Below, one piece after another: positions 1 through 713 of a DNA stretch of 64,000 nucleotides (its first letter is position 1; every line of letters starts with the position of its first letter). This stretch comes from Escherichia coli (lineage in GTDB: Bacteria > Pseudomonadota > Gammaproteobacteria > Enterobacterales > Enterobacteriaceae). The translations under genes were made by a program, and so were the position numbers. The DNA lies in NCBI RefSeq assembly GCF_003334335.1, contig NZ_QOWQ01000001.1, one strand, 5' to 3'. The notes beneath the pieces are model-generated. The model ran no database searches, had not been told where the DNA came from, and saw only the letters and a list, made by a program, of their open reading frames with translations.

Positions 1-713
1 CGCTGGCGTTACGGCTGTTACCTTCGCACTGCCCGCAGCTCGAACAGCTTGGCGCACCAACGGTATTGCCGGAATTACTCAAGAGCGAGAATGGCCTGAT
101 TCTGGTGACGGGGGCGACGGGGAGTGGCAAATCTACCACGCTGGCGGCGATGGTTGGCTATCTCAATCAACATGCCGATGCGCATATTCTGACGCTGGAA
201 GATCCTGTTGAATATCTCTATGCCAGCCAGCGATGTTTGATCCAGCAGCGGGAAATTGGTTTGCACTGTATGACGTTCGCATCGGGATTGCGGGCCGCAT
301 TGCGGGAAGATCCTGATGTGATTTTGCTCGGAGAGCTGCGTGACAGCGAGACAATCCGTCTGGCACTGACGGCGGCAGAAACCGGGCATTTGGTGCTGGC
401 AACATTACATACGCGTGGTGCCGCGCAGGCAGTTGAGCGACTGGTGGATTCATTTCCGGCGCAGGAAAAAGACCCCGTGCGTAATCAACTGGCAGGTAGT
501 TTACGGGCAGTGCTGTCACAAAAGCTGGAAGTGGATAAACAGGAAGGACGCGTGGCGCTATTTGAATTGCTGATTAACACACCCGCGGTGGGGAATTTGA
601 TTCGCGAAGGGAAAACCCACCAGTTACCGCATGTTATTCAAACCGGGCAGCAGGTGGGGATGATAACGTTTCAGCAGAGTTATCAGCACCGGGTGGGGGA
701 AGGGCGTTTGTGA
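1..713 (+). CDS. yggR: PilT-like type IV pilus retraction ATPase family protein, C-terminal ~236 aa (5' end outside window)
   Basis: Frame open from position 3 with no stop; Walker A GATGSGKST at start of ORF 66..713; recognised as YggR C-terminus from memory. Confidence 0.85.
   Translation, partial: LALRLLPSHCPQLEQLGAPTVLPELLKSENGLILVTGATGSGKSTTLAAMVGYLNQHADAHILTLEDPVEYLYASQRCLIQQREIGLHCMTFASGLRAALREDPDVILLGELRDSETIRLALTAAETGHLVLATLHTRGAAQAVERLVDSFPAQEKDPVRNQLAGSLRAVLSQKLEVDKQEGRVALFELLINTPAVGNLIREGKTHQLPHVIQTGQQVGMITFQQSYQHRVGEGRL

Follow-up and report, generated by a model that had tools for sequence, protein, structure and literature searches.

The yggR locus

The stretch of DNA analyzed here (the window, 64,000 nucleotides) corresponds to the reverse strand of the Escherichia coli K-12 chromosome, from position 3,094,812 of NC_000913.3, which is window base 1, down to position 3,030,813. 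The MG1655 chromosome is collinear with the window and displays 0 mismatches in the 2.3 kb compared (NC_000913.3); NZ_CP032667.1 is likewise collinear, with 7 mismatches over the 64 kb, none of which falls in yggR. Megablast searches with window positions 1-4000 recovered matches in all complete E. coli genomes (5426/5426), several of them at 100% identity. In some E. coli strains the 4-kb stretch from yggR to rsmE is interrupted by an IS1 element of ~0.8 kb (e.g. NZ_CP082327.1, 769614-774390) and is otherwise 100% identical to the window. A 'delta-yggR' has also been reported as part of blaCMY-2 transposition units, that is, in a mobile-element context (PMC6061673).

The window opens inside a gene on its plus strand. 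The frame at 3..713 (+) runs without an internal stop for 236 residues (LALRLLPSH...GEGRL) to a TGA codon at 711-713, and its translation, its identity to b2950 (WP_001326494.1) and a score of 470 bits against TIGR01420 identify it as the 3' part of yggR, a pilT ortholog, comprising codons 91-326 and the stop codon. The complete gene occupies 3,094,100-3,095,080 of NC_000913.3, encodes a product of 326 aa and is annotated as yggR, 'PilT/PilU family type 4a pilus ATPase'. The window thus carries the final 72% of yggR, and codons 1-90 lie upstream of it. Because the true start falls off the window, the list of open reading frames of the window shows for yggR only an internal frame with a TTG start at 66..713. 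A sequence-only reading of this DNA had described yggR as an orphan gene for a retraction-ATPase-like protein; save for the gene being cut at the window edge, both its observation and its interpretation are confirmed by the results presented below.

Downstream, yggR converges on ruvX across an annotated intergenic spacer at 714..896, which contains an imperfect REP-like palindrome at 759-800, detected as an inverted repeat with arms of 19 nt each (759-777 and 782-800) that are 79% complementary. This spacer is the site where pilU would be found in species that have it. The genes that follow in the window are ruvX, yqgE, gshB, rsmE, endA, sprT, galP, metK, speAB, tkt and others up to ygfT. The gene for the periplasmic DNase I, endA, lies at 3759-4469 (-), 3 kb from yggR, and this linkage is kept across Enterobacteriaceae; its Vibrio cholerae ortholog (dns) presumably occupies the same neighborhood as pilT and controls competence. 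Farther along, recJ is found at about 56,700-58,440 (+). Rfam matches above the gathering score comprise ES036 (24734-24776, -), the SibC antitoxin RNA beside the ibsC toxin gene (37848-37998, -), 6S RNA (ssrS; 38647-38830, -) and the REP-derived naRNA4 (52341-52418, -).

YggR is a PilT-type ATPase

To define the affinities of YggR we compared the complete protein with family models, domain models and solved structures. It scores 470.1 bits against the NCBIfam model TIGR01420 (pilT_fam; cut-off 319.1 bits), with the match extending over positions 1-328 of the 343 in the profile. The models for GspE, PilB, ComGA, DotB, TraJ and VirB11 all remain far under their own cut-offs, with 137 bits for PilB (cut-off 676) and 157 bits for GspE (cut-off 630). 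The only Pfam domain recovered is the T2SSE ATPase core (residues 63-265, E 9e-49), the feature that YggR shares with HofB, PilB and GspE as fellow members of the secretion-ATPase superfamily. The best solved relative is the Pseudomonas aeruginosa PilT (3JVU, E 5e-83), which aligns with residues 1-324 of YggR over its residues 1-327, and the end-to-end alignments extend to the PilT structures of Aquifex and Geobacter (E 5e-83 to 8e-76). The layout expected of the PilT family is an N2D followed by a CTD in ~330-370 aa, with no N1 domain; YggR, with 326 aa, displays the same two-domain architecture and, unlike the extension ATPases PilB, GspE and HofB, contains no N-terminal extension domain.

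The catalytic motifs are intact and all fall within the part of the gene carried by the window. The Walker A motif (P-loop) GATGSGKST (residues 127-135; 111..137, +) aligns to GPTGSGKST of the P. aeruginosa PilT, and the Asp box LEDPVEY (residues 155-161; 195..215, +) to its IEDPIEF. They are followed by the Walker B motif DVILLGELRD with the catalytic Glu201 (residues 195-204; 315..344, +) and the His box TGHLVLATLHT (residues 217-227; 381..413, +), both read from the sequence and its alignment. In a scan of 13 homologous loci Walker A and the His box were present in all, and Walker B in all except a 52%-identity metagenomic homolog; the comparison of the Asp box was with the P. aeruginosa PilT only. 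The PilT signature is degenerate: alignment places AVGNLIRE (residues 285-292; 585..608, +) at the position of the canonical AIRNLIRE, and enterobacterial orthologs display AVG, ATG, AAG or AVA at the variable positions while keeping NLIREGK. Hence, by its sequence features, YggR is a clear member of the PilT/PilU family, and the description of its gene product as a retraction-ATPase-like protein is borne out.

Within this family YggR sides with PilT. With the classical PilTs (P. aeruginosa PA0395, PDB 3JVU/3JVV; V. cholerae VC0462) it shares TIGR01420 membership, the two-domain architecture without the N1 domain of the extension ATPases, the Walker A, Asp, Walker B and His boxes, and a gene linked divergently to yggS. 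It differs from them in being only about 47-52% identical, in a C-terminus that is about 15-18 residues shorter, in having AVGNLIRE in place of AIRNLIRE and in the absence of a pilU adjacent to its gene. PilU is covered by this TIGR01420 'PilT/PilU family' model as well, and the PilU structure 9N32 matches YggR at E 1e-70; however, YggR scores better with the PilT structures, and yggR occupies the position of pilT beside yggS.

Type IV pilus genes lie outside the window

In the K-12 annotation, none of the genes across the 64 kb encodes a pilin, secretin, platform protein, alignment protein or peptidase. We additionally searched the window by tblastn with 16 K-12 proteins of the type IV pilus and type II secretion systems (PpdD, HofB, HofC, HofM-Q, PpdA-C, YgdB, PppA, GspS2, GspC and YghD). 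The single significant match was that of HofB to yggR itself (E 2e-27, 44% identity over 151 residues); all other matches had E > 0.03, so that this search revealed no hidden pilus genes in the window. The earlier statement that no pilin, secretin or assembly gene accompanies yggR in these 64 kb therefore stands, as does its expectation that any partners would be encoded elsewhere. According to the K-12 annotation, ppdD-hofB-hofC lie at 114,522-117,549, hofMNOPQ at 3,519,465-3,522,751 and ppdA-ppdB-ygdB-ppdC at 2,962,441-2,964,177, the last of these ~130 kb from yggR and ~67 kb past the far end of the window. The same genome thus encodes the major pilin, extension ATPase, platform, alignment complex, secretin, minor pilins and prepilin peptidase, all outside the window.

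The nearest genes of a related machine belong to a truncated type II secretion (T2SS-beta) cluster, sslE-pppA-gspS2-gspC-gspL(partial)-yghD, about 15.5-19.3 kb upstream of yggR (within L001:1-4223, which corresponds to 15.5-19.7 kb upstream, in the coordinates of the 44-kb locus L001, which includes the DNA upstream of the window). Its pppA encodes a prepilin peptidase and lies about 19 kb upstream of yggR, not adjacent to it; PppA is a possible processing enzyme for the pilins of the pilus served by YggR. The proximity of this remnant raises the alternative that YggR serves another machine, either type II secretion or plasmid-borne type IVb pili, and PilT motors are indeed promiscuous across pilus systems (10.1101/2021.10.23.465551). 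Against it, the T2SS-beta cluster is mostly deleted in K-12 and yggR is nonetheless intact, and the conserved linkage of yggR is to yggS rather than to a secretion cluster. Moreover, type II secretion systems are not known to employ a retraction ATPase. We accordingly regard service to another machine as very improbable.

An isolated position next to yggS is ancestral for pilT

The DNA immediately upstream of the window contains the 5' end of yggR and then, across a gap of 17 bp, the divergent yggS, followed by yggT, yggU, rdgB and hemW. As these are the upstream neighbors, the possibility that pilus biogenesis genes adjoin yggR just beyond the window edge fails. To determine how widespread this organization is we examined 30 loci of enterobacterial species from Escherichia, Salmonella, Citrobacter, Klebsiella, Enterobacter, Leclercia and Cedecea. 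The order hemW-rdgB-yggU-yggT-yggS, divergent from yggR, which in turn converges on ruvX-yqgE-gshB-rsmE-endA, is kept in the enterobacterial loci for which flanks were retrieved. The divergent pairing with yggS is present in 29 of the 30 loci, the remaining one having only 87 bp of upstream sequence, and the gap between yggS and yggR is 14-17 bp at every locus measured. In none of the 30 did we find another PilT-like gene or a pilU remnant, be it in the yggR-ruvX interval or elsewhere within 6 kb; pilU has also been reported missing from E. coli (10.1101/2021.10.23.465551).

The same pairing recurs at greater distances. A 60%-identity homolog displays yggT-yggS divergent from pilT, in the same layout as E. 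coli, and a 46%-identity homolog, in three assemblies, yggT-proC-yggS divergent from pilT, the surrounding 6 kb being free of further pilus genes. In the literature a contiguous divergent yggS/pilT pair is described for Acidovorax, Xanthomonas, Pseudomonas (P. syringae), Erwinia and Pectobacterium (PMC8787154, PMC9605639). As the divergent yggS pairing is kept in enterobacteria, in distant homologs and in the published cases, the unlinked, yggS-paired position is the normal ancestral position of pilT and not an anomaly. In Proteobacteria pilT is paired head to head with yggS, beyond which come yggT and, in some lineages, proC before it, and is placed apart from the other pilus operons; the enterobacteria retained this ancestral position and lost pilU.

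It follows that the distance of yggR from the other pilus genes, correctly recognized by the sequence-only reading, is ordinary. The label 'orphan' applies to position only: the partners have been identified, the genome that carries yggR encodes them too, and the position is normal for pilT. YggR is the product of an already known gene of a known family in an expected genomic position. The finding has little value as a discovery, given that yggR is annotated and has been used experimentally, and that the separation from type IV pilus genes is the textbook arrangement of pilT; the value of the check is a negative one, in that the 'orphan' status calls for no special explanation.

The tenacity of this arrangement could alternatively mean that the head-to-head pairing reflects a functional coupling of PilT with PLP homeostasis or the cell envelope, beyond ancestral synteny. 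The divergent pairing with its gap of 14-17 bp is indeed kept from Enterobacteriaceae to the 46%-identity homologs, and inactivation of yggS in Acidovorax reduces swimming motility and type III secretion and attenuates virulence (PMC8787154, PMC9605639), effects which a review of PLPBP takes as a functional connection between yggS and pilT (PMC9605639). Yet these effects concern yggS rather than pilT, there is no mechanistic evidence for coupling, and shared promoter DNA is by itself able to freeze gene order. Hence, we give a functional coupling very little credence in comparison with ancestral synteny.

Selection on YggR and its function as a retraction motor

YggR is 326 aa long in 27 of the 30 enterobacterial loci and 329 aa in Cedecea; the gene is frameshifted in the remaining two, namely Leclercia adecarboxylata NCTC13032 and one Citrobacter amalonaticus assembly. 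The coordinates of these two frameshifted loci are L038:6001-6974 and L041:5807-6787. YggR is also shortened in Shigella flexneri and S. boydii (P0009, P0016), and in Salmonella Saintpaul lineage IB yggR is interrupted by a premature stop (PMC8731237). These are sporadic losses, and those seen as frameshifts in assemblies may be sequencing errors. Pairwise comparisons of yggR between K-12 and other Escherichia, Salmonella, Citrobacter and Enterobacter yielded dN/dS values of 0.03-0.12, with dS of 1.4-1.9 between genera. Such a ratio at dS values of up to 1.9 points to sustained purifying selection on YggR. At the same time it is the fastest-evolving protein of its neighborhood, with 77-83% identity to Citrobacter and Salmonella vs 86-97% for its neighbors.

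The latter feature would fit a decaying relic that is functionless in E. coli and kept only because its 5' end and the upstream DNA overlap the yggS promoter region. YggR is the least conserved protein of its surroundings and is inactivated sporadically; neither K-12 nor uropathogenic strains displayed the pilus in standard conditions (PMC2649431); and synonymous sites in codons 1-21 of yggR show unusual conservation, which would be expected of DNA that holds the yggS promoter. However, the purifying selection acts over the whole of yggR and, judging by the between-genus dS, over a long term. Furthermore, 28 of the 30 species loci carry a full-length yggR, each of the complete E. coli genomes searched yields a match to it, all catalytic motifs of the protein are intact, and YggR works as a retraction motor in V. 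cholerae (10.1101/2021.10.23.465551). A functionless relic is therefore an improbable explanation.

The functional evidence comes from natural transformation in V. cholerae, in which the MG1655 yggR stands in for the resident pilT in vivo and fully complements both delta-pilT and delta-pilTU (10.1101/2021.10.23.465551). A Walker A mutant of yggR restored transformation in neither of these backgrounds, and the Walker B mutant E201A of Chlebek et al. failed in delta-pilT, the background in which it was tested (10.1101/2021.10.23.465551). As the Walker A mutant fails in both backgrounds, the activity of YggR in V. cholerae is ATPase-dependent. In the same study complementation succeeded for pilT with YggR but failed for V. 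cholerae pilB with HofB, and YggR acted as a stand-alone ATPase-dependent retraction motor, a property of PilT, unlike PilU, which needs PilT (10.1101/2021.10.23.465551). YggR differs from the V. cholerae PilT in being unable to support PilU-dependent retraction. Replacement of AVG by AIR in YggR did not restore this activity and the reverse swap in the V. cholerae PilT did not abolish it; neither the AVG substitution nor the short C-terminus accounts for the deficiency (10.1101/2021.10.23.465551). These signature swaps addressed PilU-dependent retraction only.

Taken together, we consider it most probable (roughly 0.82) that window positions 3-713 constitute the 3' 72% of yggR, the single PilT ortholog of E. 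coli, which functions as the retraction motor of the PpdD pilus and is isolated by ancestry. The identity and family of YggR, its intact catalytic motifs, its synteny, the purifying selection on it and the pilus-free window come from the present analysis, and ATPase-dependent retraction by YggR has been shown in the literature for the heterologous V. cholerae pilus. We infer that in E. coli YggR acts natively on the PpdD pilus; in the accessible literature we found no direct demonstration of YggR-dependent retraction of the native E. coli pilus. The product is predicted to be a hexameric ATPase of the secretion superfamily that does without the N-terminal domain of the extension motors. Its most likely docking site is HofC, the platform in the inner membrane of the chromosomally encoded type IVa pilus or competence pseudopilus. 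This structure is built of PpdD by HofB and HofC, together with HofMNOP, HofQ as the secretin, PpdA, PpdB, YgdB and PpdC as minor pilins, and a prepilin peptidase. ATP hydrolysis by YggR would then drive the pilin subunits back into the membrane, resulting in retraction. Weak expression in the laboratory, the fastest local evolution, the degenerate AIRNLIRE signature, the short C-terminus, the inability to support PilU-dependent retraction and the sporadic inactivation speak against a retraction motor of the PpdD pilus.

A candidate CRP-S-type site within yggS

The pilus genes of K-12 are poorly expressed in laboratory conditions (PMC2649431; PMC1635313). Two of them, ppdD and hofM (yrfD), are induced by Sxy with cAMP-CRP via CRP-S sites (PMC1635313), and all E. 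coli homologs of competence genes have been reported to be Sxy-induced (PMC3330819). We searched for the CRP-S core TGCGA-N6-TCGCA (T4G5C6G7A8-N6-T15C16G17C18A19) and found a perfect palindrome of this type, TGCGATGGCGCTCGCA, at L001:19584-19599 (about 3,095,214-3,095,229 of NC_000913.3). It is located 134-149 bp upstream of the yggR ATG and 402-417 bp upstream of window base 1, within codons 39-44 of the yggS coding sequence. This is the only perfect core in the 44-kb locus, the 64-kb window contains none (0.16 expected), and all perfect cores in 365 kb of enterobacterial loci fall at this one position in yggS. Of the 30 enterobacterial loci, 11 have a perfect core and 18 have, at the corresponding place, a core with a single mismatch, the last locus lacking the region; the mismatches correspond to amino-acid changes in YggS, namely A44E (many Citrobacter and the Klebsiella MAG) and S41G (Cedecea). 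The synonymous positions of yggS codons 39-45 are almost invariant, and this 7-codon window ranks 5th of 548 across yggS and yggR. The CRP-S-type site is absent from the 52% and 46% homologs. Upstream of ppdD a candidate with 2 mismatches to the same CRP-S pattern lies at a similar distance from the start codon, -144 from the ATG.

The palindrome matches the core of CRP-S sites exactly and differs from them in sitting within a coding sequence and in having flanks that are not A/T-rich. Further, E. coli CRP-S sites have been described as asymmetrical, whereas the yggS palindrome is symmetrical, and a site engineered to the symmetrical form TGCGA/TGCGA showed activity whether or not Sxy was present (PMC6728893). 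In Citrobacter the site reads TTCGA...TCGCA and is asymmetrical, the G5 of one half-site being gone. On the plus strand upstream of yggR there is no sigma-70-like promoter above background, and -10/-35 elements placed by hand relative to the palindrome display no canonical class I or class II spacing. The palindrome had also been flagged as terminator-like on the plus strand, but in the Citrobacter variant one stem pair is lost with no compensating change, so that covariation lends no support to an RNA hairpin, and we rejected this possibility. In the searchable literature, to which the Sxy list of Sinha et al. 2009 does not belong, we found no paper that joins yggR with Sxy, CRP-S or CRP.

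These observations raise the possibility, which we put forward tentatively and consider rather unlikely on balance, that yggR is co-induced with ppdD, hofMNOPQ and ppdA-ppdB-ygdB-ppdC by cAMP-CRP, with or without Sxy, via the candidate CRP/CRP-S-type site in yggS. Were this the case, the site would be a regulatory element held at the synonymous positions of a housekeeping gene and would answer the question, raised by the sequence-only reading, of whether yggR is co-expressed with the ppd and hof genes. It would also complete the picture of how the scattered, normally silent pilus and DNA-uptake genes of E. coli switch on together.

The near-invariant codons lie in a broader region of raised synonymous conservation that comprises codons 1-45 of yggS and codons 1-21 of yggR (L001:19581-19795), with values of 0.7-0.97 vs about 0.5 elsewhere. 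Raised conservation at the 5' ends of both genes suggests that their divergent promoters overlap, each lying within the coding sequence of the other gene. Synonymous positions are near-invariant in a second block as well, at codons 166-186 of yggS (L001:19158-19220), with 7-codon windows reaching 1.00. Within this block, on the yggS strand and about 130-160 bp upstream of yggT, there is a promoter-like TTGAAG-18 nt-TAGCAT, and to judge by these sequence features the block may be an internal promoter for yggT.
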